Below, piece by piece: positions 20,998 through 43,749 of a stretch of DNA of 64,000 nt. The notes beneath the pieces are model-generated. The model searched no databases. It was given only the letters and a program-made list of their open reading frames with translations, and was not told the DNA's origin. Every line of letters begins with the position of its first letter. The stretch's first letter is position 1. Source of the DNA: Psilocybe cubensis (taxonomy: Eukaryota); assembly GCA_017499595.2 (NCBI GenBank), contig CM039006.1, forward strand, positions 868,001-932,000, written 5' to 3'. The position numbers and the translations under genes are program-made.

Positions 20998-22114
20998 ATG
21001 TCAGCACCTCCGCCTGGCAATCGTGTTATGCATTTGCACATTCAGAAAGTTGTCAAATCCTTGACTCTTCTCTCGTCGTCGCTTCCGGACAATATACCAG
21101 TGGCTACACGGCACGATAAAATCTATACTGCAATACCTACTGCTCCTATCGAAAGTCAGGGTTCAGCCATCTTTGAGACATTTAATCATGTCACGGACAT
21201 TCTATTTAAAGAATATGCAGACTGTCGAGATGAGCATGGTCGCTTTCATTATATCCGTCGTGGAAAGCTTGGAATGGAAAATTTCTGTGTGTATATAGGC
21301 AAAATAAACTGGGAAGTCTCTGACATTCCCCTTGACCTTGTTGGGATGAAGCTGGAACGGATACTTGATGAGCTCAAATATCTTACATGCGTAACTAATA
21401 TCTACATTTATATTCAATCTAATATGTACTTACTATTGGTTAGAAAACTTCCTCCTAAGAAAACAGGAGTCTATAACAATGCAAAGACAAAGCCGGTACC
21501 AAAAACCAAAAAGAAGGCAAAAAAAATGAGTGGAATAACTCAGGATCTAATCAATGGTGCTGTACGTGACCTTTGGAGCCTTCCTAGCAAAGGTAATGTC
21601 ACATTAAACTCACGTCTAGCCCTGAATAAAAGATCTAAATACCTTGTATTAGATGGAGAGTGTACCGACATCAATTCTGAGGATGACGCTACATTTAAAC
21701 CACGCCAAAATATGGAGCGTGAGTTATCCAAAGATTCAATTTTGTTATATACCCTCGATAAGGACGGGCTTGAAGTTGATGATAGCAAGAATGACCCAAA
21801 AAAGCGCCAGCGAGTAGTATCTGATACAGAAAGTGAAGGAGAACAGGTTAACAAGGTAAGACATTGAAATATAAGAAGTATAAGTTAACTTACTATTGAA
21901 TATTTACTGTAATAGGGCCCGTTGTACAAAAAAGCAAAGAAATCAGCAAGCGCAGCCAAATCTGCAAAGATTAAGGTCATTGATGTTGACGACGTACCTG
22001 AGGCATCAGAAACAGAAGTCAAATACAACAAAAAGGGCCCTGCAAACCATAGTCGAGCCCATTTTAGAAATCCGGTACCCGTTGTAGTACAAGGAGTTCA
22101 TCAATGGGAGTTTT
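20998..22114 (+). pseudogene. hAT transposase, 5' part up to the BED finger
   Basis: Spliced ORFs 20998-21867 and 21922-22137 end at HFRNPVPVVVQGVHQWEF. Removing the KDZ insert joins this to LCRHCKK at 44075. Confidence 0.8.
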
Positions 22115-22432
22115 CACATAAGACAGTTTATTTATAACGTACATTACCTAAGATTTAATAATAAGGATATTACGTGAGACACAGTGGATTTACTTCCGCT
22201 ACCTAATTAGGAGATTAGCGTGATGTACGTGTGATTTAGCCTGGCAAATCATAGCGTACATGACGTGCCATTTAGCGCTAAATGGAGCCGCCGGGTGGCC
22301 TGCGGGATCCGCGCGTCTACCTACACGGAAGAAACACGGGCCGGAAATGAGCCGGACGGGTCCATTTGCATCCCGTGTATTGCAAGCAGACGGATCCGCT
22401 TGACCCGTGTTGTGCTGTCAGACAGACCCATT
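22115..22432. repeat. Left terminal inverted repeat of the KDZ element
   Basis: Reverse complement of 43750-44067 with only a few mismatches. Contains internal ACACGGG/CCCGTGT and CGGATCCG motifs. Confidence 0.95.
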
Positions 22433-22557
22433 CATCCATCCGCTTCTGTATTCCGACAAATATCCGCCTTGAATCGTACATTGGATGACCGTTAATATAT
22501 GTAATAAGGTGTATAGATTATACTGGCAGCAAATTCCTTTCCATATACCCTGATAGT

Positions 22558-23837
22558 ATGGATTATGCCTTTGAGCTAACCCAATCCCTCTCAAACTACA
22601 TGAAGGCAAAGATAGCTAGTCGTCTTTGGCATGCAGAACTGCCTAATCAAATCCGGGAAAACTTCAGTGCTGAGACCATGTTTGAGTGCAATCTAGCTGT
22701 GGAGGTGATTTTGCAGGCATTTGAAAATCAAGGTATGCAATCAATAAGCTTTGAAAATTGAGATTAAATAATGTGTGAATGGCAGAATATACGACGTGGG
22801 ATGCAGAAGAATATTTGACCCATCTCAGCGCACGTTGCACGGGTCAGAATTCTGCCGTTGAGGCTCGCCTGAAAGACCAGTTTCCTCCGGTGCATTCCAC
22901 GTTACAGTACCAAACCCTGCCCGGAACTGTAATCGATAGTGCAGGCAACATATTGGTGTGGTACCTGCCAGGTATTTTGTCAGAGACAAGGGTGGTGAGT
23001 TTTAGAAACGGACCGATTAATTCCTATATTATGCGTTCTAAAGAGTAACAGGAGAGTGTGTGGAATTCATTACGGGATATTGAAACAATGATTCACAAGG
23101 CGGCACCTTTGGCCACAAGCTGGAGGGTCAATGACAGTTACTTTCGACATGAGCCAGGTTGGCTTCAACCTGGAAATCTTAACTTTTCCCCGGCATGGTT
23201 TCAGCAAGGCCATGAGGTGAGAAACTTGTTTGCTAAGTATTATACTGCCTCATATTTTCCTCAGACGTCCAACCCGCTTGAGGTCTCCTTGGACTTGTGT
23301 AATCCTATTGGACAGGAGTTTATACGAGACATGATGACATCTTCGGCTTTGCTGGGAGCCATCTTGAGCATTATACACCCCGAGCAGTACCGGGCGGGAA
23401 TAAAATTTCTTCAACGGCTTGCTGCGGAACCGGAGCTCGTCCATAAGGCCGAAATATTGAAGCAAATTCTCACAATATGGAGTTCGCCCTTTGGAGTCAT
23501 GACCGCCATCAGCAACCGAGATACACCATACCATCGGGATAATGGGTCATGCTACTCATGGTACGATTTTTTGATGCCACTTGGGAAGGGTGAACACGGA
23601 CGGCTTGAGCTTCCTGGCCTTGGACTTCGGTACAAGTATGATCCCATGACCCTTGTTGCAATTACCGGCAGGTTGCTTCAACACGGCACGGTGTGCGAGG
23701 GAGATAGGGCAGTCATAGTCTATTACATGCGTAGGAATGTATTTAAAGAGCTGGGAGTCCAAGAGGCGGGATGGTCTACTACGTACGATCTTTTTGCAAA
23801 TTTACCGGCCACCAACACTTTTGATTTTGAAATATGA
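22558..23837 (+). CDS. TET/JBP-family 2-oxoglutarate/Fe(II) dioxygenase (fungal TET)
   Basis: Exons 22558-22732, 22786-22994, 23052-23216 and 23265-23837, with no internal stop. Motifs ILVWYLPGIL, GNLNFSPAWFQQGH, NRDTPYHRD (HxD), RLELPGLG..YDPMTLVAITGRLLQHG (distal His) and GDRAVIVYYMR (2OG-binding Arg). Location inside a KDZ element is the known context for agaric TET/JBP genes. Confidence 0.88.
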
Positions 23838-24064
23838 TCAGTTTTTGACTTGGAAGTTGGGTTTGGGGAAGATTTTTTTATATTTCCAAAACAAAACGGT
23901 ACGAAAGCTACAGGACAACCAGAATTCTCTGTCCCAGGGTGTTTCCGACGCGCCCGCGCTGAGCTCTTCCAAGGTTACCGGAATCATCGGACTCCGCCGT
24001 CGTATTACCGGCGGAAAAGGCATCATCCGCCTCCTCTTCGATGTCCTGTGCAAGAGGTGGGCAA

Positions 24065-25681
24065 CTAAGATTCCTCATCCCAGGGTGTTTCCGACACGTC
24101 CTCGCTAAGCTCTTCCGAGTTACCGGAAGCATCTGACTCCTCCGTCGTATCACCGGCGGAAGACTCCTCATCCGCCTCCTCTTCAAAGTCCTGTGCGAGA
24201 TGCTCTAAAAACGTAGCTGGTGTAGAGGATTCAGTGGTATCGGACGTACTATCAATATCATCCTCTTCTCCCGGGAAAACAGGTCTTGACCTTGCGTTAA
24301 AAAGGAAGGCATTGCTGGTGTGTGCATTTGACGGAGGGCTGACGGAACCGGGCGTAGGCAGAGTATCTGTTGGGAGATGAATATTTGCAGTGTTGGAGGG
24401 TGGCGAATGATACCAGAGTGGATGAAAAGGTAGTTCCTTGACGGCAATAAAAGAATAAAAAATGTCGTTGATGTAAAATGAAGCGACTTTGAGCTTTGAG
24501 ACCTCGAAGGACCGGGCTTGAGCCGTTATAGCGCCCCAACTGTCAGGAGAAGGGTGAACGGGATGCTGAAATTTGTATTTGGCTGAAAGCCCCTTGCCGT
24601 TAGAGAACGGGAGCTCCTTAGAGTCAATCCACATCTTCTCCAATACAGAATATCTGCCCAAGGCGGCCGAAGAAGTAGTCACTGCTTTATGGGCATTCTT
24701 CATTTTGTCCGCCACATTCCGGCGCAGGTGAGCCAACTCCCTCATTACGCCCGTTAGGATAGGCTGACCGCAGCGGGGACAGTAGGGCGGTCTGTGGTCA
24801 GAAATTGCAATTGGGGATGTTTCATCCCGCGTGTTTGCAACACGGGTCGGCGGATTGGGTTTCCCCGTGGGCGGTGAAAACGCGGAGCCGTGCTTTCCCG
24901 TCAACGCGGATCCGTGCTTCCCCGAGGTGGGGACGGATGTCCGTTCAGCCGCCTTTCCCTTGCCCTTGGGATTGTTTTCCTGATTTCTTGGAGGCCCAGA
25001 GGTAGATGAACTTGCGCCCTCCTTAGCTTCTTTCCTCTGATTATTTAGCCGGAGTACCTCTTGTTGGTATTCAGGCAGAACCACCTGGTGGGAAGGACGC
25101 AAATCAGATATAATCCACAGCAATAAAAAAACATACCTTGTTCCAAAATTCTCTTGCTTGCGATTCAACGGTAACAAAGGCAACTTGCCACTCATCGCCT
25201 TCAGCAAATCCGTCCCTCCACCAATATCCCCAGCTCTTGGTCTGATTTAAAATTTCATCATCTTCCCATGCTGACCAGCTTTGATTTAGAGATTCAAATA
25301 AAACAGCTCGATGGTGGGGAGTTCGGTTCAAAATGGCATGTACGCTCTGATTCTGATATAAAAAATGGAATATCAACTTGGAATCCATTGACATAGCAGT
25401 ATCCGAGTACTCTCAGCAGTATAGCCTGACGACCAGTTCTCAATACAAGATATAATCGTTCAAAATTACTGTCTTACCACCTCCAGGTCGAGCAAATACA
25501 TCCATTTTTGGCGACGCACGGAGGAAACAGAGTCTCCGTTTGCAATGAACAAACGGTATCCGGCACGGATCCGTGCACCACAAATATGGACATGAACTTT
25601 GGCCAGAGCACGTCGCTCATCATAGGTAAGGAGATGATGTTCGTCCTCGACAGGAGGTTTAAAAAGCCGCGGTAAGTGCAT
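24065..25681 (-). CDS. KDZ cargo gene, hypothetical protein with an acidic C-terminal tail
   Basis: Spliced ORF pieces 25466-25750, 25104-25394 and 24065-25207. Contains CPRCGQP and a D/E-rich tail. The start codon is approximate. Confidence 0.6.
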
Positions 25682-27631
25682 GAATTCAACGAGATGGGAT
25701 ACAACAAGAATGTTCAAAGAACTGGTTAATCTGTAATTATAAATCTCCACACGGACGGATACTCCGGGTTAATTTGACGGAAGACCTTATCCGCGGCCCG
25801 CCCCAGATCATTCCACATGGCAATCTGCTTTTGAGCATTTGCCCTGTGACCAACTAACCTGTCAGGAACAAAATCATGCCGTGCACGCCATGTCTTTGCC
25901 ATATACACATAAAATCTGACAGTCCATTCCATTTCCTTTTTTGTCAAGGCCAGCTCTTCTTGCCATCTATTCCTCTGAGCTCGCGCGCGGAGCCAGTTTA
26001 GCCTGAAGACTAAGAAGCCCTTGAGAAAAAAATTAGAAATACAAATAGCAGTACTCACACTCATTAACGTATAATTGATTATCATTGTCCAGGCCCTGAC
26101 GGGATCTCCAAATCCAACTTAGACGGTCCGAGCTTCCTCCGCGAATGTTCGGATCCGACACGGCATTACTATGCTTGCAATCATGGACTTGCAGAATGGG
26201 ATATTGTTTCCGAATATTATCCTTGTCTCGCACGCCAGCAGATAAATAGATCATCTTCTGACGGTTTGTGTTGTAGAGTCGCCGGTGCAATTTCCAGGAA
26301 GCATTCAAAAGCTTGACGCCATCCCAAGCACGAGTCCCCATATAGACGGAGTCGGCGGTCCGAACCTGATATTTATACTGCCAAGAAAGCTGGATCAAGG
26401 CTGACCGGACCGCTTCCAGACAGTCTTCTGCGTGGCCATGTCTTATTTGAAGTTCAAGTTTGCGAAGCCCTTTTAAAATGAGGTTTGTTCCCGCGTCAAG
26501 GCCGTCAAAGAAATCTTGTTTGACGGCGGAGGGAAACGGAAGCGGCTGTCGTTCCGGATCCGCGCGGGTAATGTTGACATTTCCAAGATCAGGATCGTCG
26601 TTGTCACTGACTTCATAGTCAAGTATGGGAGCGATGTCCCCTTGAATATCCTCCAAGACATCTTCGCCCATGAAGGTCATAGCGGATCGACAGAAGGCTT
26701 CAACGCGGGTCCGCATGGAGCAACGTTTATTGACCAAGTCAAGTTTCTGCGCGGTGGAAGGATGCTTTCCGAGCTTTCTGACATGGTCCCTGAGCTCCAA
26801 TCTAAAAGCATGTTAAATTCTGTAGGATGCAATTGAAATAATCGTACTGCGCTTGCTCCAGTTTTAAGCCGGATGATATCCATGCTGCCTTTCCAGTAGC
26901 ACCATTAGATGTAAGTTCCATATTTGAAAGATGCAATTCAATTTCTTGGCGTCCAGCAGCCGTTTTCACTTTGCTTGCCATTACCTTGCCAACAGCGTCG
27001 GCCACACCTTGTTCTCGGTCCGCTTCTGCTTTTGAAATTTCATCTTCCCAAGTGTTGATGAGCCCGGAATCTTGTTGATCCGTGATACCCCTATAAAATC
27101 GGTCTGTGATTCCGGACTGTTCCCGTGCCCGTTTGAACTTTGCAGCAATTGTTGCAGCCATATTAATGGTCTTCTTCCAGTTGGAATCCCCCATGTGGTC
27201 GTCCAAAACCTCTGCTCGATGGGCAGTGGTAGCGGAACGTGTACTCCGGGATGTGTCATTTAACACGGACCACAACGGCTCCAGGATTTCTCCGTCAATG
27301 ATTCCCACACCCGGGACATAGGTGGATGCGTAGTTGTAAAGACATTCCGTCTTGTGCCCGTGGACGTGAAATAAACCAATTGCAAAAATCATTTTAACAG
27401 AAGGTGGCCAATGCATTTTTGTGGACTCTGAGAGACGCCTTGCCAAGTTAACGCAATATTGACAGTTTATATCGTAGATTTCCAAATGTTTTGTGATTCC
27501 CTGTGTGTTGGTAGTTTCCCTGGCCTGAGTCAAAGACCAATCCATGTGCATCTGCTTTTCGCCTTTGTCAAAATCGACAACGCTGGATGGACAGAAGCAT
27601 CCGTGCCTAGCGCAAGCGTGTGCCCCAATTC

Positions 27632-28081
27632 TGTCAGGGTTTCTCCAGTTTCCCCTCTTTATCTTCACAGAATTATCTTATCCTTTCATTATCTTATCAA
27701 TTATCTGATTAGATAGTTTATTTCTTTCATCACAGCCTTTTTGCTCCACTTCTTTCTAGTAAATTCTATATGATTCCTAGTCTTACTCATCCTTTTTCTA
27801 TATGATGTCACTTTTATTCTTTAACCTTCCTTTATGATGTAATGTAGGGAATATTCTAGAATAGCTGTAGAGTATAAATACTGGACTTGTAGGTAGCTGT
27901 AGCTTCAGCTTCAATCTCTTAGGATATCCACTATCATTGGTGTGATCTCTTAGAATCATTGAGTCTCTCCCACTCTCTTATTCTCTCTTTGCTCTCTTAC
28001 TCTCCCTCTGCTCTCTCTCTCTCTCCCTTGCTTGATCTTTGTTGGTGGCCTTGTCACACTGATTATAGTGTTGCCCTGACA
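27632..28081 (+). repeat. 5' LTR
   Basis: Direct repeat of 33561-34010 with no difference seen by eye. TATAAATA at 27873. Confidence 0.97.
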
Positions 28082-28572
28082 GAAGATTGAAGCTCTCTCA
28101 AGACAACTCCACCATCTCTCTTTTAACACCAAACTCTTCAACCTCTTCAACCTCTTCAACATCATCACCTCAACCTTCTTCCCCCACTTCCAACCCACCA
28201 ACCTCTTCATCAACCTCTTCACCAATCTTCTTACCAACCTCTACATCTCCACCAATCTTCAACATCCTCCTCAAGACCTTTCCTCAAGACCTTTGGCTCA
28301 TCATCTTTCCTACTCTCTGTTGTGTGCTGTGTGTGAACTTAGTAGATAGGGATACCAACTGTTGGGGCAGACACAGTCCTACTAGTGTTCTGTTTTTGGT
28401 GGTCTAGGAAATATCCAGTAACCCTGTGATCCTAGGTTTAGAGCCCTGAGTGGTGTGACAACTGGGTATCCAGTAGATAGATATTTTTTAGAATACTTAG
28501 TATAGTTTCAAGGGCACTTTTAGTAGATAGCTTCTCCCACACACACATCAGAGAGCCTACCTACCCCTACCC

Positions 28573-29682
28573 ATGGACATGGACCCCTCCCAATTGCCTC
28601 CCACCACTCCTTCTGTGGAAGAGCTCATGCATCAGGTCCAGCTCCTTACCCAAGAGTTGAATTTTCTTAGACAGCAGCAGCAGTCATCACCCACTCCACC
28701 ACACCCTCAGCAACCAGTCAGTCAGTCACCATCATCACCACCACCACCACCACCTGCTGCTCTAGATATTCACTCTTTCCCTACCCCTCATGTTGCCCCT
28801 TCCTGTTCACACTCTGTCATTAAAGTCTCACCTCCAGATCCATTTGATGGTTCTATGGAGAAGGCAGAAAACTTCCTCAGTCAGCTCAAATTATATTTCT
28901 ATGGGAAAGGGATTACAGATGACTTTCAGAAAGTTATTTGTGCTCTATCTCATATGAAAGGAGGTACTGCTGGGAAGTGGGCATATGAGAAGACTAAAGT
29001 AATAGACAATGCTCAGTCCCAAGAAGGTCTTTGGGCTGACTTTGTTTATGAATTTAGGGAAGTGTTTGCAGATCCAGACCCCTCCAACACAGCTAAACAT
29101 AAAATGCACATGCTCAAGCAAGGCAGACAGACTGCTGATGAGTATGTTGCTAGCTTCAGGGCTCTGATCTCAGATACTGGGTATAATGATGCTGCTTTGG
29201 TAGACCAATTCAAGGCTGGGCTCAATGAAAATCTCAGGAATGCAGTCTACTATGTTCCTGACATGCCCAAAACCTTGGATGGATGGATTAAATGGAGTAC
29301 TAGGCTAGATAGGCAGTGGAGACAGAGTGAGGCCTTTACCAAGTCTCTTTCCTCCTCCTCATCTTCTCCCTTTCTTAAAGCCCCAACTCCCAAGGCTGTT
29401 CCTAAGCCTACTCCAAATCCTCCAGTCTTTTCCAACAGCAGCTCAAGGACCTTTGGTGCTCAGGCAAAGCAACCAGATGTAGTTCCCATGGAGGTTGACT
29501 CTGGATGGAAGTTAGTTAGGCCAATTGTTTGCTTCAAGTGCAGAAAGCCTGGTCATAAGGCTGTAAACTGCAGGTCATCAGTTAACATCAATGCTATGAC
29601 CCATGAAGAACTGGCTGACTACTTTGGGAAATTAATCTTAGAAGGCAAGGAGCAGAAAGATGAGGAAAAGAAAAATTTTTAG
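28573..29682 (+). CDS. gag: Gag (retrotransposon gag domain plus CCHC zinc knuckle)
   Basis: Motifs PDPFDG, LKQG..TADEY..F..L, FKAGL, PMEVD and CFKCRKPGHKAVNC. Confidence 0.95.
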   Translation: MDMDPSQLPPTTPSVEELMHQVQLLTQELNFLRQQQQSSPTPPHPQQPVSQSPSSPPPPPPAALDIHSFPTPHVAPSCSHSVIKVSPPDPFDGSMEKAENFLSQLKLYFYGKGITDDFQKVICALSHMKGGTAGKWAYEKTKVIDNAQSQEGLWADFVYEFREVFADPDPSNTAKHKMHMLKQGRQTADEYVASFRALISDTGYNDAALVDQFKAGLNENLRNAVYYVPDMPKTLDGWIKWSTRLDRQWRQSEAFTKSLSSSSSSPFLKAPTPKAVPKPTPNPPVFSNSSSRTFGAQAKQPDVVPMEVDSGWKLVRPIVCFKCRKPGHKAVNCRSSVNINAMTHEELADYFGKLILEGKEQKDEEKKNF

Positions 29683-32600
29683 AAGCACCATTGGTGAAAG
29701 ACATGTCCCAATGGAATAGATTTAATGTACTAGAAAATGAAATTGACAGACTTGATCCTCAGTCTTCAGATTCTGGTGCAGAAATCATGTCTTCTTCTTC
29801 CTCTCTTTCTACCTTCCCTGAAAAGATCTACATCCTCAACCATAATCCTAAAACCTCTACCCATTTGTCTGTCATCTTAAAGACAATGGACACAGAGAAA
29901 AGGTTATCTGTTAATGCTTTGCTTGATTCTGGAGCTACTGGCCTCTTTCTGCATTCTGGTTTTGTGAAGTATCATAATCTCAACACAAGGAAACTTCCTA
30001 GAGCCATTCCAGTCTATAATGTTGATGGTACTCTCAACAAGAGTGGCTCTATCCATGAGGAAGTAGACTTAATTATGGTACACAAGAACCATACAGAAAG
30101 GGCCACCTTTGCTGTTTGTGACTTGGGAGACAAATCTGCTATCATTGGACATACTTGGCTTTGGCACCATAATCCAGATGTTGATTGGAAGACAGGGGAT
30201 GTTCAGTTTATTAGATGTCCCTCTGACTGCCAAATGGAAGCCAAAAGAGCTAGAAGAAAGAGGCAGAGAATAGCTGCAGTCAAAAGGAGGAAACTCCCTC
30301 AATTTGATGAAGAAGAAGATGATTCTATTGAAGATTCTTCTGATTCTGAGATTGAGCCTGAGGACAGAATTTTCATCTCATACCTTCATCCTCAGAAGCA
30401 GTCTATTAATGCTACTTCTACTATGTCTCAAAGATTAGCAGAAGAGTCTCATCAGCAAGCTGATTCTCCTAAGAAAACCTTTGAAGAAACTGTCCCTAAG
30501 CACTATCACCAGTTTAAAGGTGTTTTTTCAAAGGAATCTTTTGATAGGCTACCAGACAGGAAGCCTTGGGATCATGCTATCGAGCTGAAACCTGGTTCTG
30601 AACCTTATAGATCCAAGATTTATCCTCTCTCTCCCAATGAACAAAAGGAACTTGATGCCTTTTTAGAGGAAAATCTGAAGTCTGGCAGGATTAGACCCTC
30701 CAAGTCACCTATGGCCTCTCCTGTATTCTTTGTCAAGAAGAAGGATGGATCTCTTAGGCTTGTCCAGGACTATAGGAAACTGAATGAAATGACCATCAAG
30801 AACTCCTACCCCCTTCCATTGATTTCTGACATTATCACCAAACTCAGCAAAGCCAAATACTTCACCAAACTTGATGTTAGGTGGGGATTTAACAATGTCA
30901 GAATCAAAAAGGGAGATGAATGGAAAGCAGCCTTTAGAACCAATAGAGGGCTGTTTGAACCATTGGTCATGTTCTTTGGTTTAACCAATAGTCCTGCTAC
31001 CTTCCAAACTATGATGAATGATATCTTTATTGAGCTCATTGATGGAAATGTTGTCATTGTCTACATGGATGACATTTTAATTTTCACTGAGACTCTTGAT
31101 CATCATAGAGAGGTAGTCAAGCAAGTTCTGCAAATCCTAGAACAGAACAAACTCTACCTTAAAGCAGAGAAATGTGAATTTGAAAAGGAAAAGATTGAAT
31201 ATCTTGGACTAATCATTTCACAAGGCAGGATTGAGATGGATCCTGTCAAGGTAGAGGGAGTTTCTAAATGGCCTGAACCTGAAAATGTCAAGGATGTCCA
31301 ATCATTCTTGGGATTTGTTAATTTTTATAGAAGGTTTATAGAGGATTTTGCAGACATTGCTAAGCCCCTTCATGAATTGACAAAGAAAGGAACAGTCTGG
31401 AGATGGAGTCTTAGACAGCAGGAAGCCTTTGACCAGTTAAAGAAGAAAGTCACTTCTTCACCTGTCTTGATTTTCCCTGATGATAACAAGCCATATAAAG
31501 TTGAAGCAGACAGTTCAGATTATGCTACTGGGGCTGTTTTATCTCAGGAAGGATCAGATGGAAAATGGCATCCTGTAGCCTTTATGTCTAAGAGTCTATC
31601 TGAAGTAGAAAGGAATTATGAGATCCATGACAAAGAGATGCTGGCTATTATCAGAGCACTAGATGAATGGAGACATTATCTTGAAGGAACCCAACATTCC
31701 TTTGAGATTTGGACAGACCACAAAAACTTAGAGTACTTTATGGTTGCCCAAAAGCTCAGCAGAAGGCAAGCCAGATGGTCACTCTTCCTGTCCAGATTTG
31801 ATTTTACTCTTCATCATAGGCCTGGTAAAAGATCTCTTAAGCCAGATGCTTTGTCTAGGAGACCAGATCATAAAAAGGGAGAGAATGATAATCAAAATGT
31901 AGTTCTCCTCAAACCTTCCTACTTTAAAATCCAGGCTCTCAAGCAGGGTCATGCTACCATTACTGGTGCAGAAAATGATCTTCTTAAGAAGATTAGAGAA
32001 GCTAAGGAGATGGATGAAAAGGTGGTCAAGGCAGTTCAGGAGCTCAAGAAATCTTCTACCAAGAAGATTGAAGGACAGGAATGGTCAGAAGAACAAGGCC
32101 TTATTCTCTACAGGGGGAAGGTGTATGTTCCCAAGGACAAAGATCTTAGAAGAAAGATTGTGGAACTGCACCATGATGCCTTCATTGCTGGACATCCAGG
32201 GAAATGGAAGACAATTGAGCTAGTCTCTAGGAATTATTGGTGGCCAGGAATGTCACATTTTATTGCAGCCTATACCAGAGGTTGTGATAGATGCAACAGA
32301 ACCAAAACCTTTCCAGCCAAACCTCTTGGCCTTTTAATTCCTACTGAGATTTCCTCTGATGTCTGGCAATGCATCTCTGTGGACTTTATTATGGGGTTAC
32401 CAGAATGTCAAGGGTATAATGCCATTATGGTGGTTGTGGATAGACTTAGTAAAATGATCCACATTATCCCTACTACAGATGAAGTCACTTCTGAAGGGAC
32501 AGCCAGACTATACAGAGATTATGTCTGGAAACACCATGGCTTACCCATTAAAATTCTGTGTGATAGAGGTCCACAGTTTGTCTCAAGGTTTATGAAAGAA

Positions 32601-33560
32601 CTCAACTCAATACTTGGTATCCAGACAGCCTCATCTACAGCCTACCATCCCCAAACTGATGGTCAGACTGAAAGAGTTAACCAAGAAATTGAGCAGTATC
32701 TTAGACTCTTTATAAACCATAGACAAGATGATTGGGTTGAATGGTTAGCTTTAGCTGAATTCTCTTATAACAATAGAGTTCAGGCTTCAACCAGGCAGAC
32801 ACCATTCATGCTTAATAATGGCAGACATCCCAGAATGGGCACTGAACCCCTTAGAGATAGTAAAATGGACACTGTGGATACCTTTGTGAAAAATTTGGAA
32901 GAAGCCAGGAAAGAAGCAGAGTCTGCACTTAGAAAAGCTGCTGATGATATGGCTAAATTCTATAATAGACACAGAGGTACTCCAACTCAGTACAAAGTTG
33001 GGGATTTGGTATGGTTGGATGGCAAGGACCTTAAAACTGATAGGCCCTCCAAGAAATTGGATGATAAAAGATATGGGCCTTACAAAATTACCAAAGTTAT
33101 TAGCCCTAATGCCTATGAGCTTAAGCTGCCATCTACCATGAAAATCCATCCAGTGTTCAATGTGGTTAAACTTCTACCTTATCACCCAGATATTGTAGGA
33201 AGAAAGCCTCCTTCTAGACCACCACCTGTCATTCAAGGAGAAAATCCTGAGTGGGAAGTTGAATTTATCAAGGACAGCAGACTTTTTAGAAACAAACTTC
33301 AATATTTGGTCAAGTGGAAGAACTATCCTAATGAAGAATGCACTTGGGAGCCTGCAGAGCATTTGAAAAATGCTTCTAAGGCTATCAAGGACTTCCATGC
33401 CAAACATCCTTCAGCACCTAGAAGGATTTCTGCTGTGACCTTTGATAGACTTTCTTTCACTCCTATTATTAACTTTACTGAACCTCCTCCTCTTCTTAAA
33501 CCCTCTAAACTAACCCATCCATGTGCACATTGTGGAAAATGTGCCTTAGAGAGGGGGTGA
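29673..33560 (+). CDS. pol: Pol: protease, reverse transcriptase, RNase H, integrase, chromodomain; in the -1 frame relative to gag
   Basis: LLDSGAT, YMDD, EADSSDYATGAVL, H-H-C-C zinc finger and DDE integrase, YGPYKI, and chromodomain WEVEFIKDSR..YLVKWKNY..TWEP. Confidence 0.97.
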   Translation, partial: KFLEAPLVKDMSQWNRFNVLENEIDRLDPQSSDSGAEIMSSSSSLSTFPEKIYILNHNPKTSTHLSVILKTMDTEKRLSVNALLDSGATGLFLHSGFVKYHNLNTRKLPRAIPVYNVDGTLNKSGSIHEEVDLIMVHKNHTERATFAVCDLGDKSAIIGHTWLWHHNPDVDWKTGDVQFIRCPSDCQMEAKRARRKRQRIAAVKRRKLPQFDEEEDDSIEDSSDSEIEPEDRIFISYLHPQKQSINATSTMSQRLAEESHQQADSPKKTFEETVPKHYHQFKGVFSKESFDRLPDRKPWDHAIELKPGSEPYRSKIYPLSPNEQKELDAFLEENLKSGRIRPSKSPMASPVFFVKKKDGSLRLVQDYRKLNEMTIKNSYPLPLISDIITKLSKAKYFTKLDVRWGFNNVRIKKGDEWKAAFRTNRGLFEPLVMFFGLTNSPATFQTMMNDIFIELIDGNVVIVYMDDILIFTETLDHHREVVKQVLQILEQNKLYLKAEKCEFEKEKIEYLGLIISQGRIEMDPVKVEGVSKWPEPENVKDVQSFLGFVNFYRRFIEDFADIAKPLHELTKKGTVWRWSLRQQEAFDQLKKKVTSSPVLIFPDDNKPYKVEADSSDYATGAVLSQEGSDGKWHPVAFMSKSLSEVERNYEIHDKEMLAIIRALDEWRHYLEGTQHSFEIWTDHKNLEYFMVAQKLSRRQARWSLFLSRFDFTLHHRPGKRSLKPDALSRRPDHKKGENDNQNVVLLKPSYFKIQALKQGHATITGAENDLLKKIREAKEMDEKVVKAVQELKKSSTKKIEGQEWSEEQGLILYRGKVYVPKDKDLRRKIVELHHDAFIAGHPGKWKTIELVSRNYWWPGMSHFIAAYTRGCDRCNRTKTFPAKPLGLLIPTEISSDVWQCISVDFIMGLPECQGYNAIMVVVDRLSKMIHIIPTTDEVTSEGTARLYRDYVWKHHGLPIKILCDRGPQFVSRFMKELNSILGIQTASSTAYHPQTDGQTERVNQEIEQYLRLFINHRQDDWVEWLALAEFSYNNRVQASTRQTPFMLNNGRHPRMGTEPLRDSKMDTVDTFVKNLEEARKEAESALRKAADDMAKFYNRHRGTPTQYKVGDLVWLDGKDLKTDRPSKKLDDKRYGPYKITKVISPNAYELKLPSTMKIHPVFNVVKLLPYHPDIVGRKPPSRPPPVIQGENPEWEVEFIKDSRLFRNKLQYLVKWKNYPNEECTWEPAEHLKNASKAIKDFHAKHPSAPRRISAVTFDRLSFTPIINFTEPPPLLKPSKLTHPCAHCGKCALERG

Positions 33561-34010
33561 TGTCAGGGTTTCTCCAGTTTCCCCTCTTTATCTTCACAGA
33601 ATTATCTTATCCTTTCATTATCTTATCAATTATCTGATTAGATAGTTTATTTCTTTCATCACAGCCTTTTTGCTCCACTTCTTTCTAGTAAATTCTATAT
33701 GATTCCTAGTCTTACTCATCCTTTTTCTATATGATGTCACTTTTATTCTTTAACCTTCCTTTATGATGTAATGTAGGGAATATTCTAGAATAGCTGTAGA
33801 GTATAAATACTGGACTTGTAGGTAGCTGTAGCTTCAGCTTCAATCTCTTAGGATATCCACTATCATTGGTGTGATCTCTTAGAATCATTGAGTCTCTCCC
33901 ACTCTCTTATTCTCTCTTTGCTCTCTTACTCTCCCTCTGCTCTCTCTCTCTCTCCCTTGCTTGATCTTTGTTGGTGGCCTTGTCACACTGATTATAGTGT
34001 TGCCCTGACA
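33561..34010 (+). repeat. 3' LTR
   Basis: Direct repeat of 27632-28081. Confidence 0.97.
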
Positions 34011-34098
34011 AATTCCACATACTCTCTTACCCGGGCTGACTCTGTTTTCAGCTTTCTGGGCGTGGTAGTTATGACATGTTTGTTCCTGATATTTTTTT

Positions 34099-34200
34099 AC
34101 ACGGAGGATAAGCCATCCGCCGTGGAAGATTTTTTTGACACGGAAGGGAAGCATCCGCCGTGGAAGATTGTGACACGGAACGTAAGCATCCGCCGTGAAA
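34099..34200. repeat. Three ~35-bp tandem units inside an intron of the KDZ transposase
   Basis: Unit ACACGGA-n-CATCCGCCGTG(GAAGATT) repeated three times between the coding blocks APRYKR and EQTCHNY. Confidence 0.8.
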
Positions 34201-36911
34201 GATAAATCATGGTAGATAACGCACCCGTTTATAACGTGGAGCAAGAGAAATTGCTTCCTTGATGTGCTCCTTGTATGGGCCCGGAGCAGTCATGTATCCT
34301 TCTCCAACGCTCAACCAAACATCGTCTCCCTCGTTTTTCTGATTGAGGTGATCTGCTTTGAAATTACCATCTGCAACATAACTACGTATGTACAGATTGC
34401 TATTTGCTGTTAATTGCAGTCACCCTTGAAGAATAACTAAAACTTGCCTGTCAGCATCATCAATCCAGGTATCAGGTAGGTTTATTCCAGGCTGTGGACA
34501 GGCGGGGCAGAATAAGGCCAACTTCCCTCTCCTATCTTCAACTTTGGGATGATCCTCGGTCCGCGTCATTTGTGGTGCAGGCGGACCATCTAATCCACCG
34601 TGTCCCAGAGACGGGTCCGTTGACATTCCGACTTCTTGAGACGGACTATCAGATCCGCCGTCAATTGGATCAGATACATTAATACCCATCCTCTCTGGTG
34701 ATGAATCATGGCAATGATGATAGTAAGGGACCACCGCTTCTCTTGTATGCCCTTCTCCGTATTGTCGTCTCAGGACAAGGTCCCTGTATTCTCTACTAAG
34801 CCTTCTCAATTCACGATAGCGGTTCAGCACCTTTTTTGGAAACGCTGGCGAAGTCAGTCTTCGCAACTTTTGGTAATACTGATAAGCCGACGTTTTGCAC
34901 TCGAGGTTGTCCATCCGAAAGTCCTCAAGGACCTCAACTGTGAACACAGTTTGAACGTTTTCAAAGCTGGCTGCAAATAATCCCATCTCCAGATACTGTA
35001 AATCAATAGACGGAAGGCGGACGGACCGGCATGTGCATGTTCGCACGGGCAGATAATGGACTCCGGAGGTGTGCACAATTGCCTTGAAAGGAATTCCATT
35101 GTTGTCTGCTGCCTTTGGACGAGGTTGGTCCAGATAGGTTGTATCGACTTCCTCGAATAGATCATCGTCTTCATCGTCTCCATCGTCCAGCTCAACCAAA
35201 TGGGGTACCTCCGGGTCCGCCAGAAGCTGAGCCGTAAAGGATTCTTGGTCATTGCTCGCAGGAAGCGGATCCAGGTCCAATCCGTGTTCATCCTCAAAGA
35301 TGGGCGAATTGTTTCCGCCGTGCCCATGACTCCCGGATGAATTGTTTCCGCCGTCGCATCCTAGATGGCTCGGATCCGTGGGATAAGGACACCGCTTCCC
35401 ATTATGACCCAAATACAACTTGACACCCACTTCCCACAGAGCTCCCGGACGGAAATATAGACCCGTCCACTTCTCAACGCGGTGGAAAGGTGTAAATTGA
35501 TGGTTTCTTCGCAGGCATTCAGAACACAAAATTCTAGAGCCAAAGCATTGGCAACATCTCCACACTCCAGACATTCCTTGACATTGCTGACACCGTCCAT
35601 TCAGATCCGGATCCGGGGCTTCTCCTCCAATCATTGTTCCAAGATACACCTCTCGTTTCGGGAGCCATTCCCTCAGGTAATCATTTTGAGACTGGATAGG
35701 TAAAGTCATCCTGATCATTCTACTGAAAACATGTTAAAACATACCTTTCCTCCCGTTCTGTCGTCATCTAGCTGTCTCAGGTTATCAAGTACCTGCTGAT
35801 CAGTTAGATCTCCCGGATAATGAGGTATTTCTTCTTCCAGAATGTTGTGTTCATGGTTTTGGAAAGAGTAAGTCGTTGTTTGAGGGAGGTTTGTTGATGA
35901 TGATTCTGCAGGAAGTTTGTGGATCCTCGGCCGCCCTCTCTTTCGTTTCTTGGCCCCACTAGACCAGGAGGCCTCCCGAACATTGGGAAACTCCTCATCC
36001 GATCCCCTATCAGGTACTTTCTTGAAGCCCATGGATGTTGGAAACAAAGAGTCTGACAGCCTGTGAGCGCAGATCTAAATGTAGTATAACATGTTTATTT
36101 CTGTAGATAAATTTCCCTCAATTATGCCGTTTTAAAGAGGAGAAAAATAGCTTTCATATGACTTATCTTGCAGCATATTTGGATGAGTGAGTGAAATGTT
36201 ATGAACAAAACTTAATCCAGAGATGCACAAAATGGACGTGATCCCATCATAAATGTACAATATGATGCAGAACGATCCTTTCAGAACCACACTTTGGAGT
36301 GTTTTTGAAATATCTTTTCACTGGCTGGCCCCTCATTCCTCCGGCGTATATCATATGAAAGATATTTTTAATAGCTACCGAATGACATTTTTTGTAGAAT
36401 GTGAATCCTCGTATTTAAGGAGATATTCTCAATATACTAGAAAATGTGTCAAAATGAGCTCACTGGGATCATTATATTTTTTGAAAAAAATTATGCATTT
36501 GAATACCTCTCATGGTCTCTGAGATGACTGCCGTTTTGGGTTTCACAAGTTTTGGGTGAGAAGACGTGAATTTGAATTTTGTGTTTCTGTATCTTTACAG
36601 CCATCTAACAAGAATTTAAAACCTTGTAAAATTATCTTTATATAAAGCGCTAAATGTTTACAAAATTTCATGTTTATTGATTGAGTGCAGAGGGAACTAT
36701 TGCAAAATCATGAGGTCAATGTATGTGACAGCGACCAGCATGCTTTGATCATCGTGGCCGACGATGAAGCGGGATTACCTGATTGGGAAAAATATGACAT
36801 CACATCATTCATTTAGTATGATCGGAAGCTTATTTTATCTCCGTATGACGTGAGATTTGACTAGATCACACAGATACTCATCGATAAGCTACTTGTTACA
36901 TCGCTGCAATT

Positions 36912-39160
36912 ATGCCCACCAATGCATCCCCCGACGCGGATCCGCTTCCTTCCACCGCAAATGCCACAACCCACAACGGACCCAGAAGCGGACAGACGGC
37001 GGAGGGTGACTTTCCGCCGGAAGAATCAAATATATGGACCACAAAGGAAATGCGCGTGTTGAAAAAGCATGTACAGCCCTACAAAGATACATCAAAGTCA
37101 TCCAAAGCAGACTACATACAGAACACTGTCATACCTGAGCTGCAAGCTACATGGGATCACAGATACTCTAGACGTGCTAGGAAGGAAGATAAGCAACTAC
37201 ACAAAGAATGGAAGGTGAAGAAGCATGTGAGCTCGTTGTTTCTTTGAAAATTTTGTTACACACATAAACCATCACAATAGCGAATTTTTAATTGGTTTAG
37301 AAACCATGCGTCAAATCGAATTGGTGTAAAATTGGAAGGATTGAACTCCCGTATAACCTTTCAGACGGTATTCCGTGAGGAGAAGTCGGCAGAGATTGAC
37401 TCCGAGGTTGCGCTTCTATCAGGGAATGCTGCTCGTGGAAGTAAAGATTGGATGAAGTTTTATCAACAAGGACGTAAGCAGGTTGAGGCCAGATTGACTC
37501 AGGAGGAGCGGGACAGGTTCATGGAGATCCTTGAGGAATGGAATAAGAAAGGTGTTTCAAAATCAATGAAGGCAAAGTGAGTCGGTGGAACTTGTTTCCG
37601 CCGTCAATCTGACATCTGCAGGACTGCTGCCAGGCAAGGCAGAAAAATACTTCGACAAATGGAGAAACTTAAGTGGCAGAGAATGGGTATGAGGTCCATT
37701 ACCTTTGAGGGGCATTATGATATTGAGGGTAAAATCGAATACTCAATGTAAGTGTTAAACACGGCATGAACAAGTTCCGCCGTGAATGCTTACGGCAGAA
37801 TAATTTGGCCCGTATTAATGTTGACTGATGGGCATTGAAGGACCCAGACAAGCGATCTAGCACTCGACAATGTCAGAATTCCTTCCTTTGGGCAACTCTT
37901 TCCATCCGAGTTGGCCGCTTTTCGCAGAGCGTTTGTTCAATACCTCGTCCACATTTCAGAAATAGAGAAGGGTGTGGCCAATCCAGCACTGCCAGATGCA
38001 TCGTTTCATGAAAAATCCCTCAAGTTTAGCAGCAATGGATTTCCAATAGTACCTAGTCCTATCTATGGCTCAACTGGGAGAGAAGTTGCTTATGCGCAAA
38101 AGTCAATTATTAGAATTTACATGAACAAGGTTTATGGTGTGTAATTTGTCTATGTCCTCAACAAACTTGCTAACTATGTATACAGCTTTAGCCAAGGATA
38201 GGCCTGGTTCAAGTGTTCCTTGGGATGCTCTTGAAAGGCGTTCTGCAGAAATGATTGATCCAGAGTATTGGCCAAGTTCAATCCCTGTGACGGATCCGAG
38301 CCGGCTCCGCCTGGAGTCAACTTCTGCAATTCTCAAGCTATGGAGGGACCGTCAAGCGCAAGGAGACATCCCCTTTAAATTCTCAAAGGTTTTTGGAAAT
38401 GGCTATGACATTATGGAACCTCTCTATCCGTCCAACTTGTTTGACGGCCTAGAAGCCCACCCGATACCTCCACCTCCTGCAGCCATAACCAAACGTCGGC
38501 TGAGGCAAAAAGCTATACGACTTCAAACCCAATCTTCAAGCGACTCTGAATCATCCAATCTGTCAGAGTTTGATAATGGACGGGGCAGTCCGGCATCCGC
38601 GATGCCACGCACTACTGCCAGATTTGAAGTCACGCCAGAGACGGATGAGACTCCTACCGACGCACCTTCAAGATCTAGCGAGCCACCCTCTCTACCAAGT
38701 AGATCCAGCCCAACAATTGTCAATCCATCATCCAGCCCAACTCCAGAGGTTGAGGAGGCGCCTCCCAAGCCAGCTAGAAAGATTATGCCAAGAAAAAGAA
38801 CAAAGCCATATGTCGGAACGGCGGAAATGGGACGGACCCGATGAAGAGAGTTCTGTACCCCCCCCAGTTAAGCCAAAACCAACTAGAAGGATTAAACCTA
38901 GGAAAAGAACAAAGCCCTACTCAGATCCACTTGACACAGTGGAAGAAGATGGAGTCCAAACAGGAACAACCCACGACACGGATAATACACGGGCTGGCAG
39001 GGACGTGACTTGTGATGCCTTTGTGGAGACAGTAACAAGTCCAGATACGGATGAAACACGGGCCCGCAGGAATGTGACTTCGGATGCCTTAGCACTTCAG
39101 GAAGCAAGTCTGCTTGTTGTAGCAGGTAAAAGACAAAGAAAAAAAACTTTGAAAGCCTAG
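36912..39160 (+). CDS. KDZ cargo gene, multi-exon hypothetical protein (helical N-terminus, P/S/K-rich tail)
   Basis: Spliced ORFs at 36912, 37332, 37911, 38134 and 38570. Motifs IWTTKEMRVL, RIFNWFRNH and VPWDAL..IDPEYWP..DPSRL..ILKLWRDRQ. Divergent from the transposase; the 3' end is uncertain. Confidence 0.65.
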
Positions 39161-39438
39161 CTGTTGAAGTAGATTCATGATACCTATTGAATGTGATGCT
39201 TTTTATTCTTATCTTGATGTTTCTCAAACATGTTTTCACACAAAATCAAAACAGAAAGCGGGGTTCATTAAAAATCATCAAGTGCTACTTTTTGGGAGAG
39301 GTATAAAACAGATGAGCACATGAGAGTAAAAACTATATACAGTCCAAATGATGAAAAAATTGTATAGGGATGTGAGCAATGTAATATATGACAGGCAAAA
39401 AAGGAGACCAAAAAAAAGTTACAAAGAATTGAAATACA

Positions 39439-42007
39439 CTACTTTTTTTGGGCCTTGGATTTTTTGGGCGAGCGCGATGCTTCAGCCAGAGTCGTTTCCG
39501 CCTTTCGCTTTCGTCCAGCCCTTGTCTTTGTGGCTATGTTCGACGCGGGCAGCGTGGACGCCACGATCTCAACATCCTCCTCCTCCACAATTTCAACCTC
39601 GTCGCTGTCCGAGGGATCAGACAACTCCGATGAGTGTCCATTCCCGGATGGCCCAGCCTTGGAGGATGGCTTAGCCTTTGACAATGGCTTAGCCTTTGAG
39701 GATGGGCCGGCCTTTGACGATGGCGCGGCCTTTGACGATGGTGCACCCTTTGACAACGGTGCGGCCTTTGACGTCGAACTTCGAGGACGTGGAGCTGGGA
39801 GAGGGGGTGGTGGAGACAGGGAAAGGATGGGCGGTACCGGTGGGAGCGAGGGTCGGCCAGCTGGGGGGGGCAAAGGCGCTTCCGGAGTCGAACCGGGCAA
39901 GAATAGCGCTGTTGGTGGCGCAGACACGGCAGGGAGGACGGGTGCGGGTGGAGGTGGGGGAGGGGAAGGGAGGACAGGTGCTGGCGGTGGTGGAGGAGGG
40001 GAAGGGAGAATGGGTGCTGCTGGAGGTGGAGGTGGGGAAGGGAGGGGTGCTGGCGGTGGTGGTGCGCTTGGGGATTGTGGCACAGAGGTGGGTTCACGGG
40101 TCCGCGACGGACCCGATTCTTGTTCGACCTCCGTCTTGGAGGGTCCTGCTGCCTGTTTGGGGGCGGGATTCCTTTGTTCATCCTGCTCCAGCAAATCGTC
40201 GACCACATCTCGGACGTGGTTGATCCTCTTGGTGATGTCGTTGAACATCGTGACAGAAAGCGAGGTGCTTCCTGCCACTTGTTCTTTGGCCATGGTCCAT
40301 TCGGCCTTCACCTCTTGGATGCCGTCCTCGATGCTCTTCATCCTGTTCTCCACCGCCAAGTTCGTCTCGGCAAACGTCGCAATCCGTGCATTAATCGCCG
40401 TCATGGACGCGGATAACCCGTCCAGCCGTTCCATGATTCTGCCTTGGCGCTCAAAGAGCTGCACAAGCAGTTCTCCCACATCCTCGGGGAACGACCCTTC
40501 CCCGGCCTTCCCCTTCGCCGGAACATCTTCTCCCTCCTCCAACTTCAACGCCTCCCCATAGCTTCCCAGTGGCGTCGTCAAAAATTGACCCGCGAAGGTG
40601 TTGCGCCCCGGGTAGAAGCTGCAGTGGATCTTGCGAGACTTGCAAGACTCGCAAGATTGGTGCTTCACGGGGACGAGAGGCTCAGTGCCTGTCTCCCCCT
40701 TGACATAGCATGGCACCTTGAATTTGATGCATGCCGTGCACCTTTCCACCATGTCCACCATCCCCTCTGGCACCTGGCGCACTTTCTGGGATCTCGACCG
40801 CGCCTTCCTGATGGGGGGGACATCGTCCTCGGTGTCCTTCTTTACGGAACGCGTGCGCATCTTCCGGGTGGGGGTGGCAGTGGGGGTGGTAGGCGGTGCC
40901 CCTTTGTTATCGCCTTCGTCGTCCTCGTCGACGTCCGCGTCCGCGTCTTCGTCCGTGTGGCTTCCTATGATCGCCTTGCTCCTGAATTTCCCCTGCTTGG
41001 ACTTCGCCAATCTTTCCAGCTTCTCCCTGTACGCTGGGTGACCGGGCATGTTGGAGGCGGTAATGTGGGGAATGATTTCCCCCTTCTTTGTCCGTGGGCC
41101 CCTGTAATCCGCTGGAGCCAACTGAATGGACTCCACGGGGTCCGCCGCTTTCCGTTTGCCCTTGTCTTTGTGGGCGTCTGTCACGGGTCCGTCTTCCACC
41201 GGGGGTTCGACTGCCTTGCCCTTGCCCTTCTCGGCCCGTCTCTTCTCCGTCTCCTCCTTGTTCCTCTCCTCGTCTGTCTCCTGCTCCTGCTCCTGCTCCT
41301 GCTCCCTCTTCCTCCTCTCCTCCGCCTTCTGCCTCTCCTGCTCCCTGGTCCTCCTCTCCTGCTCCCTCTTCCTCCTCTCATCCTTTCTCCTCTCCTCCAC
41401 CTTCTGCTTCTCTTCCTCCCTCTTCCTCCTCTCCTCCTCCTTCTGCCTCTCTTCCTCCTCCTCCCTCTGCCTCTCCTCTTCCTCCTCCCTCTTCTTCTTC
41501 TCCTCCCTCTTCCTCCTCACCTCCCTCTTCCTCCTCTCCTCCACCCTCTGCCTCTCCTCCTCCTCTTGCTCCTCCTTCTCCCTCCTCTTCTCTTGCTCCT
41601 CCTCCTCCCTCCTCTTCCTCTGTGCCTCCTGGCCTTCCTGGTAGGCCTTGAAGTTGGCGACTTGATGTTTGAGCATCGCCCAGTCGACCTCAAACCTGTA
41701 GATGTTCTCGCCGTCCTTGCCCTGGATGACTTTGTACGAGTAGACAACGGGGCTCGCAACATAGTCAATGAGCCGGAAGCGGGCGGCGTCCCTGACATGC
41801 TCCTGACACAATGGAACCTATTGGAATTTTTTTTTTTGTTGAGCAAGTCATGATCTTATAAAATTGAGAACTTACCAAGTCCCTGTAAAGCTGCTCCAAC
41901 TCAGCGTTGAACGCGCTTTCACCGTTGCGGTAGCACTCGGTAAACTTTTTTTCCCAGTCAGCGAGGCGTTGGGCGAAGGTGGCGGTGGTGGAAGATGAAG
42001 CGGCCAT
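39439..42007 (-). CDS. KDZ cargo gene: Zn2Cys6-like cluster protein with an E/R/K coiled coil, a second coiled coil and a Pro-rich tail
   Basis: Exon 1 from 42007 (MAASSST..YRDL|GTAAGT) spliced to ORF 39439-41811. CTACIKFKVPC-x18-CESCKSRKIHC gives C-x2-C-x6-C-xn-C-x2-C-x6-C. Basic NLS-like C-terminus. Confidence 0.75.
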
Positions 42008-42238
42008 TGAAAAAAGCGTGTTTTTATGGGGGAAGACACGTTAAATGGGTGAGGCACGGTAGAACGTGAGGGTGGTGATCGTGGTTGGAGTTAGTCTAAA
42101 AAAAGTCTAAAAAAAAGCGGTCCCGCAAAACAAAACCATACACAAACATGTACAATCTGAGTCATGTGATTTCTTCACCAGATCCAGTTTGTGCAAAAGT
42201 TGCTAAGTTCGATACACGGGTGAATCTATTTCCGTGTC

Positions 42239-43670: not shown

Positions 43671-43749
43671 AATTATTTTTGGAGCCCTTGTGCTCATTGA
43701 TTCGCAATACCTCTCAAATATCCCTCCCTCTCTGGGAAGATACGGGTCA

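Follow-up and report, generated by a model that had tools for sequence, protein, structure and literature searches.

An intact 6.4-kb retrotransposon almost devoid of CpG, nested in a KDZ/TET transposon of Psilocybe cubensis

How can a retrotransposon have lost practically every CpG dinucleotide and still be intact? The question is raised by a 64,000-nucleotide stretch of Psilocybe cubensis DNA (GenBank assembly GCA_017499595.2, contig CM039006.1, positions 868,001 to 932,000 of the forward strand), which we refer to as the window, and in which a retrotransposon at positions 27632–34010 (6,379 bp; G+C 41.1%) sits inside a KDZ transposon that also carries a TET/JBP dioxygenase gene. An earlier sequence-only reading, made by eye, had reported a single CG dinucleotide in the element, arginine coded only by AGA and AGG, uninterrupted gag and pol genes and matching long terminal repeats (LTRs), and had proposed that this lineage purged its methylation targets while staying active. 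Here we describe exact counts over the whole window, raw sequencing reads, and a comparison with related elements, and we weigh the ways in which such a sequence could have arisen.

CpG content of the element, its codons and its relatives

An exact count found one CpG in 27632–34010, at 30581–30582, where about 265 are expected, giving an observed/expected ratio (o/e) of 0.004; the single CG reported by eye was therefore the right one, and the description of the element as almost devoid of CpG holds. The depletion runs through every part of the element, with observed/expected counts of 0/14.1 in the 5' LTR, 0/20.9 in the leader (the 5' untranslated region, UTR), 0/57.4 in gag, 1/156.8 in pol, and 0/14.1 in the 3' LTR. 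Under a Poisson model whose lambda of 214.5 was obtained from the base composition of the element scaled to the window o/e of 0.8, the log10 probability of finding at most one CpG is −90.8. The desert coincides with the borders of the element, the nearest CpGs beyond it being at 27617 before and 34032 after, and no other CpG-free gap in the 64 kb exceeds 335 bp (41323–41658). Outside the element, the o/e is 0.84 over 20000–27631, 0.745 over 34011–42000, 0.80 over the whole window, and 0.93 in the low-copy region. The flanking KDZ DNA, which had been called CpG-rich, is indeed richer than the element, but the term was too strong for DNA that is mildly depleted relative to the low-copy region.

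At the level of codons, all 91 arginines in the open reading frames (ORFs) of the element are encoded by AGR (AGA 57, AGG 34) and none by CGN, in agreement with what had been noted by eye, and the codons TCG, CCG, ACG, and GCG do not occur. A codon ending in C stands before a codon starting with G in 1/476 cases, against 88 expected, and before non-G codons 307 times. Third-position C is thus common except before G, which makes this a context-dependent avoidance and no codon bias. As a comparison, the host ORFs in the window (a bHLH gene and a MOV10-like helicase gene) use CGN 40 times and AGR 21 times, the KDZ/TET ORFs use CGN 33 times and AGR 32 times, and both sets use NCG codons freely, so the pattern of the element is not that of host codon usage.

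We compared the DNA of 96 listed related elements, which share 36–67% amino acid identity with this one and come from metagenome, genome, and viral contigs (the metagenome scan gave loci at 48–66% identity over the best segment among the matches listed). Across these relatives, the pol CpG o/e has a median of 0.70 and a minimum of 0.26, and the 12 that lack stops in the alignment range from 0.64 to 1.46. At arginine positions shared with the element, the listed relatives use CGN 1,580 times and AGR 946 times. In three decayed relatives, arginine sites of the element are occupied by Cys, Trp, stop, His, or Gln (36 sites in L064, 14 in L076, and 15 in L050), the footprint of CGN deamination. In most of the listed relatives, intact copies are CpG-rich and broken copies are CpG-poor; this element is the exception.

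Thirty-nine pol columns count as conserved for arginine because 75% or more of the ten CpG-rich, intact relatives in the comparison carry it there; the element itself has arginine at 32 of these columns, always as AGR, lysine at 4, and another residue at 3. Since conserved arginines have been kept as AGR, the element has been purged and has not decayed, which bears out that part of the earlier proposal. Repeats described as CG-deficient and hypermutated combine CpG deficiency with degradation by CG-to-TG/CA transitions, which leave stops and turn Arg into Cys, Trp, His, or Gln; here the deficiency is present (0.004 versus 0.93 in the low-copy region), and the ORFs contain zero stops. Recoding CGN as AGR takes a transversion at the first position, which lies beyond deamination, so the present state reflects a long filtering of variants. 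The sequence-only reading had named two results on which its claim would fall, namely many CpGs on an exact count or a similar depletion in all repeats and genes; the count is one, and no such depletion was seen in KDZ, in the genes of the window, or in the 96 listed relatives.

The closest protein relatives of pol (P0001–P0040; 70–85% amino acid identity) belong to the fungal type of chromovirus; among relatives with a named source, the nearest, at 55–57%, come from the agaric Lyophyllum shimeji. In a FastTree phylogeny of the region from reverse transcriptase (RT) to integrase, built from 63 query-anchored rows and 10 proteins, the element groups with P0001, P0003, P0005, P0008, P0014, P0020, P0043, P0048, and P0054, and P0001 is 91% identical to it over the kept tree columns. 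A separate, distant clade (L081 and L091–L096, from soil metagenomes and from IMG/VR contigs filed as viral) has an o/e of 0.26–0.49, AGR at 24–35 shared arginine sites versus CGN at 2–9, few deamination-type replacements, and 3–12 stops; this preference for AGR suggests that partial CpG avoidance may have arisen more than once.

A scan of genome contigs with the single pol protein found no relatives, a scan of genome contigs with an alignment gave 8 distant loci in bacterial assemblies or metagenome-assembled genomes (MAGs), and the viral-contig scans gave 8 distant loci. Fungal-type Gypsy pol sequences lie in bacterial isolate assemblies or soil MAGs (L083–L085, L086, L087, L088, L089, and L090), the bacterial-assembly contigs having a very low coverage of 0.3–0.5 and the labels Shewanella canadensis, Neobacillus notoginsengisoli, and Oceanobacillus profundus. 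Three of the loci (L086, L087, and L089) are near-identical (tree branch lengths 0–0.015), and these Gypsy loci in bacterial records look like eukaryotic contamination.

Structure, copies and host of the element

Its domains and ends mark the element as a predicted complete, autonomous Ty3/Gypsy (Metaviridae) chromovirus of the Tf1/sushi type (Table 1). The order of pol domains, protease, RT, RNase H, and integrase followed by a C-terminal chromodomain, is that of Ty3/Gypsy chromoviruses; no protease Pfam model scored a match to the pol protein, and the protease was placed by its DSG motif. The element shares with Tf1/sushi chromoviruses this domain order, the SH3_Tf2-1 domain, the C-terminal chromodomain, and a putative 11-nt primer-binding site (PBS) complementary to the LTR. 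Tf1 is a single ORF, whereas gag and pol here lie in separate frames with a −1 slippery site, and the CpG-free composition is a further difference from Tf1. A −1 frameshift would connect the two genes, because the pol frame is −1 relative to gag and a slippery heptamer directly precedes the gag stop.

Tf1-type self-priming elements use a PBS complementary to their own LTR. No tRNA-type (TGG) PBS was present in the sequence inspected after the 5' LTR, and the pair formed by 28084–28094 and 27907–27917 is the sole complementary match of at least 8 nt, with a chance expectation of about 0.003 by our own estimate. The element therefore probably uses Tf1-like self-priming, in which case its transcription start would fall near 27907.

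Table 1. Positions, in window coordinates, of the retrotransposon, its parts and the neighbouring KDZ-associated ORFs
Feature	Position	Strand	Evidence or remark
TET/JBP dioxygenase ORF beside the KDZ transposase	23049–23837	+	PF12851 Tet_JBP 1.5e-19
Interrupted KDZ transposase ORF, C-terminal part (insertion host)	26802–27631	−	PF18758 KDZ 4e-26, match 26802–27551
5' target-site duplication (TSD) AATTC	27627–27631	+	Repeated after the 3' LTR at 34011–34015
5' LTR, 450 bp, TG...CA ends (TGTCAG...CTGACA)	27632–28081	+	450/450 identical to 33561–34010
LTR stretch complementary to the PBS; predicted R start (inferred)	27907–27917	+	Reverse complement of 28084–28094
Putative self-priming PBS (Tf1-like), 11 nt	28084–28094	+	2 nt past the LTR
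gag, 369 amino acids	28573–29682	+	Pfam Ty3_capsid 3e-10, Retrotrans_gag 1.5e-9, zf-CCHC 3.4e-4
Candidate −1 frameshift heptamer A AAT TTT	29673–29679	+	Directly before the gag stop; gag frame AAA AAT TTT TAG
pol, 1,285 amino acids from ATG (1,298 stop to stop)	29703–33560	+	Frame open from 29664
pol protease DSG, residues 75–77	29925–29933	+	D75 and G77 invariant in family alignment A1
Sole CpG of the element	30581–30582	+	Codon junction ATC-GAG (Ile293-Glu294) in pol; synonymously removable
pol RT	30732–31217	+	Pfam RVT_1 1e-37
pol RNase H	31479–31799	+	Pfam RT_RNaseH 5e-39
pol integrase	32136–32651	+	Pfam Integrase_H2C2 7e-20, rve 4e-10
pol SH3_Tf2-1	33000–33185	+	Pfam 4e-18
pol chromodomain, residues 1184–1233	33252–33401	+	PF00385 Chromo 2.5e-15; past rve and SH3_Tf2-1
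Polypurine tract AGAGAGGGGGTGA (inferred)	33548–33560	+	Abuts the 3' LTR
3' LTR, 450 bp	33561–34010	+	Identical to the 5' LTR
3' TSD AATTC	34011–34015	+	
ORF with the KDZ-associated CxC2 cysteine cluster (upstream portion of the interrupted gene region)	34420–35733	−	PF18803 CxC2 1.4e-21, match 34420–35718

Raw Illumina reads of run X19, which carries the same species label, were mapped onto 27001–47000, and four runs were compared in all. X19 differs from the window at many low-copy positions (44343–47000) with all reads agreeing, which identifies it as another strain or haplotype. Among the best 40 differences examined (678 lower-ranked ones exist besides), in each of which all covering reads of one or more runs differ, three lie inside the element, at 29513 (four runs), 31892 (X19), and 31046 (X12), and none of them creates a CpG; indel variants are frequent in the leader at 28140, 28267, and 28483, and their inserted letters are likewise without CpG. 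The depth of X19 per direction is ∼670–855 over the element, 42–59 in the low-copy bins of 44343–47000, and ∼320 on the KDZ flank, ratios that correspond to about 16 element equivalents and 5–7 KDZ equivalents (of at least 85% likeness) in X19. Hundreds of X19 reads end at both LTR borders with flanks in low agreement, and these varied flanks point to many insertion sites. A further 183 + 183 reads and one X12 contig join 27626 to 34011 with 5 letters shared on both sides, so other KDZ copies lack the insert (the joints may stem from paralogous KDZ copies and need not mark this very site as empty in X19).

The identical LTRs, the TSD, the ∼16-fold depth, and the many flanks together indicate recent amplification. 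The element has what transposition competence calls for, namely intact ORFs, identical LTRs, and several near-identical copies at different sites. Its earlier description as intact, with uninterrupted gag and pol and matching LTRs, is thus accurate, and that of a lineage staying active agrees with these features, activity being judged here from sequence and reads. The stretch or part of it is present in sixteen runs from eight studies, none of which is recorded as RNA.

Several observations on the runs concern individual positions or samples. At 29513, the window has T where all covering reads and contigs of the four runs have C, which changes TCA (Ser) to TTA (Leu) near the end of gag; the T is either a nonsynonymous change private to this copy or an error of assembly, and CpG is not involved. 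Contigs of X12, a differently labelled organism, lie on 30336–34337, where they overlie sections of pol and of the 3' LTR with word depths ranging from hundreds to thousands, and one 240-nt X12 piece has 30 differences, which suggests that a related family is present in this sample in very many copies or at very high coverage. Run X14, guessed to be RNA but perhaps with DNA in it, gave five contigs of 152–227 nt on the element, with 0–4 differences, and further contigs on KDZ, from which we conclude nothing.

When the element and one TSD copy were removed in silico, a 367-amino acid minus-strand ORF spanned the insertion site. The element is thus nested in a TET-carrying host element, as had been proposed: it lies inside a KDZ ORF, and a TET/JBP ORF lies in the same transposon. 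The host appears as a large KDZ transposon at ∼20000–44067, X19 depth remaining ∼5–7 times that of the low-copy region up to ∼44067, and 637 reads break off with varied flanks near 44067, which suggests that this is its right end. KDZ was the only repeat control within the window, since the 69 other ORFs scanned (22 of at least 200 amino acids and 47 smaller) included no further retroelements. The 335-bp CpG-free gap at 41323–41658 was considered as a second CpG desert and rejected as trivial, since it consists of a CT-rich low-complexity repeat in which G is nearly absent. An imperfect CT-rich tandem array (units of 6–105 bp) occupies 41262–41630 within a stretch of 60% G+C and accounts for this gap, and read depth dips over it (78–104 versus ∼215).

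In the low-copy part of the window, the nearest named relatives of the bHLH gene are from Agaricales (∼45–57% identity), which, together with the Lyophyllum shimeji relatives of pol, marks the host as an agaric. Consecutive plus-strand ORFs at 56048–57685, 22 kb from the element and also in the low-copy region, match the MOV-10 beta-barrel (1.6e-16), AAA_11 (9e-27), and AAA_12 (2.8e-14) domains and are predicted to form a MOV10/Upf1-like RNA helicase gene. In animals, MOV10/Upf1-like helicases act against retrotransposons.

Possible origins of the CpG-free state

We consider it reasonably probable that CpG methylation by the host, followed by deamination, purged this lineage of CpG without loss of its function, so that almost no CpG target is left. 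The host would methylate its repeats at CpG, as related agarics do, and 5-methylcytosine (5mC) would deaminate to T. Copies bearing CpG would be silenced and would gather damaging CGN-to-TGN or CGN-to-CAN changes, and only synonymously recoded variants would keep transposing, with NCG becoming NCH, NNC-G becoming NNT-G, and CGN arginine codons becoming AGR by transversion. The end state would be an element on which CpG methylation finds hardly any substrate and which has no hotspots of 5mC deamination, amplifying as near-identical copies; it would be unmethylated and transcribed, and escape from methylation, more than robustness to mutation alone, would have driven the purge.

In the agaric Marasmius oreades, repeat methylation is ∼0.75 per CpG, with little methylated CpG in active transposons (PMC9674265). 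In Agaricus bisporus, transposons are said to be almost the only sequences with CG methylation (PMC12730594), and an excess of CpG transitions in agaric repeats has been ascribed to 5mC deamination (Horns et al. 2012, PMC3318451). The TET/JBP gene in the KDZ transposon implies that 5mC occurs in the present genome as well. Sites for a maintenance methyltransferase are absent from the LTRs and the 5' UTR (0 CpG), the CpG specificity of the enzyme being taken from other agarics. That the whole 6.4 kb, with promoter, leader, gag, and pol, was recoded CpG-free as a heritable stealth adaptation to a CpG-only defence is a claim we would put forward tentatively, as something close to evenly balanced that leans slightly toward the negative.

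Several points weigh against a purge driven by methylation. The element has a TpG o/e of 1.22 and a CpA o/e of 1.14, compared with 1.16 and 1.03 in the KDZ flank, and no fresh deamination footprint is visible in it; values so little above those of the flanks would mean that the purge is old relative to the present copies. The sole member of its wider clade that was compared as DNA is the decayed L080 (o/e 0.61). KDZ, at ∼5–7 times the low-copy depth, is only mildly CpG-depleted (0.74–0.84), so CpG decay of host repeats is not obviously fast, though the KDZ TET enzyme might protect its own element. Finally, fungi also silence repeats through histone marks and RNA interference (RNAi), for which CpG is not needed.

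This last point leads to the alternative that the loss of CpG is a passive by-product, in which CpG hypermutability and purifying selection ratchet CpGs away while silencing continues via chromatin marks or RNAi. Every coding CpG is synonymously removable, so mutation pressure with selection suffices in principle, and the deamination pathway is visible both in the over-representation of CpG transitions among agaric repeats (PMC3318451) and in the decayed relatives. The extent of the loss is harder to accommodate: an o/e of 0.004 is far under the lowest value among the listed relatives (0.26), decayed ones included, the complete use of AGR for arginine requires transversions fixed at every site, and ∼909 TpG and CpA sites in the element (443 + 466) are one transition from CpG, yet a single CpG is present. 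Moreover, near-identical amplification to ∼16-fold fits an unsilenced element, and the fact that KDZ repeats have not been driven to zero CpG argues against a purely mutational account, unless TET protects KDZ. On balance, we regard a passive by-product as unlikely, though it deserves to be taken seriously.

Selection could instead have acted on RNA or cDNA, through a CpG-directed host factor such as an RNA binder like vertebrate ZAP or a cytosine deaminase working on reverse transcripts. RNA sensing drives CpG suppression in vertebrate RNA viruses and in HIV-1, and depletion in our element spans the whole transcribed unit, as such a factor would require. However, the predicted U3 (27632–27906) is equally CpG-free, the TpG and CpA ratios show none of the strand asymmetry that minus-strand cDNA editing would leave, and we know of no CpG-sensing RNA factor in fungi, which together make this route improbable.

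Recent horizontal arrival from a strongly CpG-suppressed donor, whose composition the element would then reflect in place of that of its host, would fit the young look of the family, with its identical LTRs and few fixed differences between copies, and the sequence occurs at 0.71–0.77 word share in runs under five coded organism labels. Those labels may be close species or strains, however, no known genome is CpG-free, and the closest protein relatives are fungal-type chromoviruses with the nearest named ones in an agaric, so that we see very little chance of such an origin. An assembly or base-calling artefact at methylated CpGs has a negligible chance of being the explanation, since raw X19 reads from a different strain reproduce the CpG-free sequence (among the best 40 differences, two in-element positions differ in all X19 reads, and neither makes a CpG) and base-call errors could not produce intact ORFs with AGR arginine codons.

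Comparison with known systems and what the element may mean

If CpG was purged under host methylation while the element stayed functional, which is the account we prefer, the closest precedents are found in repeats and transposons that meet cytosine-directed defences. Basidiomycete genomes have a CG-deficient fraction of transposable elements (TEs; Clutterbuck 2017, cited in PMC11451569). In those repeats, as described by Clutterbuck and by Horns, the loss of CpG is likewise ascribed to methylation and deamination, but in those accounts depletion apparently marks mutated, immobilised copies, whereas here it is near-total in an intact, young, multi-copy element with conserved Arg codons that were recoded instead of being destroyed. 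The Arabidopsis retrotransposon ONSEN/ATCOPIA78 has a promoter without symmetric CG or CHG sites, which has been presented as a counter to silencing (Cavrak et al. 2014, PMC3907296). Both elements lack the sites needed for stable maintenance methylation; in ONSEN, as far as that text describes, this concerns the LTR promoter only and CHH methylation remains, whereas here it concerns all 6.4 kb including the coding regions, in a fungal group for which CG methylation is reported. In Microbotryum, TE lineages are reported to have few TpCpG sites where a C-to-T change would be nonsynonymous (Horns et al. 2012, PMC3318451). These elements also avoid the target motif of a cytosine-mutating host defence, but theirs is a partial trinucleotide paucity in Pucciniomycotina, and in the agaric element CpG is gone from all site classes.

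A comparison with the host transposon is the most direct. TET/JBP-carrying KDZ (Kyakuja) DNA transposons are described from agarics (Kojima 2025, PMC12730594), and one of them was the insertion target here. Both kinds of element would represent a transposon's answer to methylation-based silencing in the same fungi, with the difference that KDZ keeps its CpGs and carries an enzyme that oxidises 5mC, and the retrotransposon drops the target dinucleotide. The same paper states that no retrotransposon carries a TET gene and asks for the reason; an element without CpG would need no TET gene. The literature searched, which did not take in many subscription papers or supplements, yielded no account of a fungal retrotransposon that is intact and CpG-free.

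Loss of CpG from a fungal repeat is usually read as the scar of a successful defence, whereas here, if the proposed purge is true, it is the transposon that has run the defence out of targets. Such an element could at no time be methylated and would not suffer 5mC decay, and its recent amplification would thereby be explained; among retrotransposons, it would match what the TET genes are to the DNA transposon it entered. For annotation, the case makes low CpG o/e an unsafe proxy for dead repeats. If a methylome confirms the account, the element would offer a clean natural test of the extent to which agaric transposons are controlled by CpG methylation alone, a reason why retrotransposons can do without TET enzymes, and, for work on silencing that is independent of methylation, a promoter and coding unit that lack CpG by nature. 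More broadly, if the account is true, sequence evolution alone could fully defeat CpG-only methylation defences in mushrooms.

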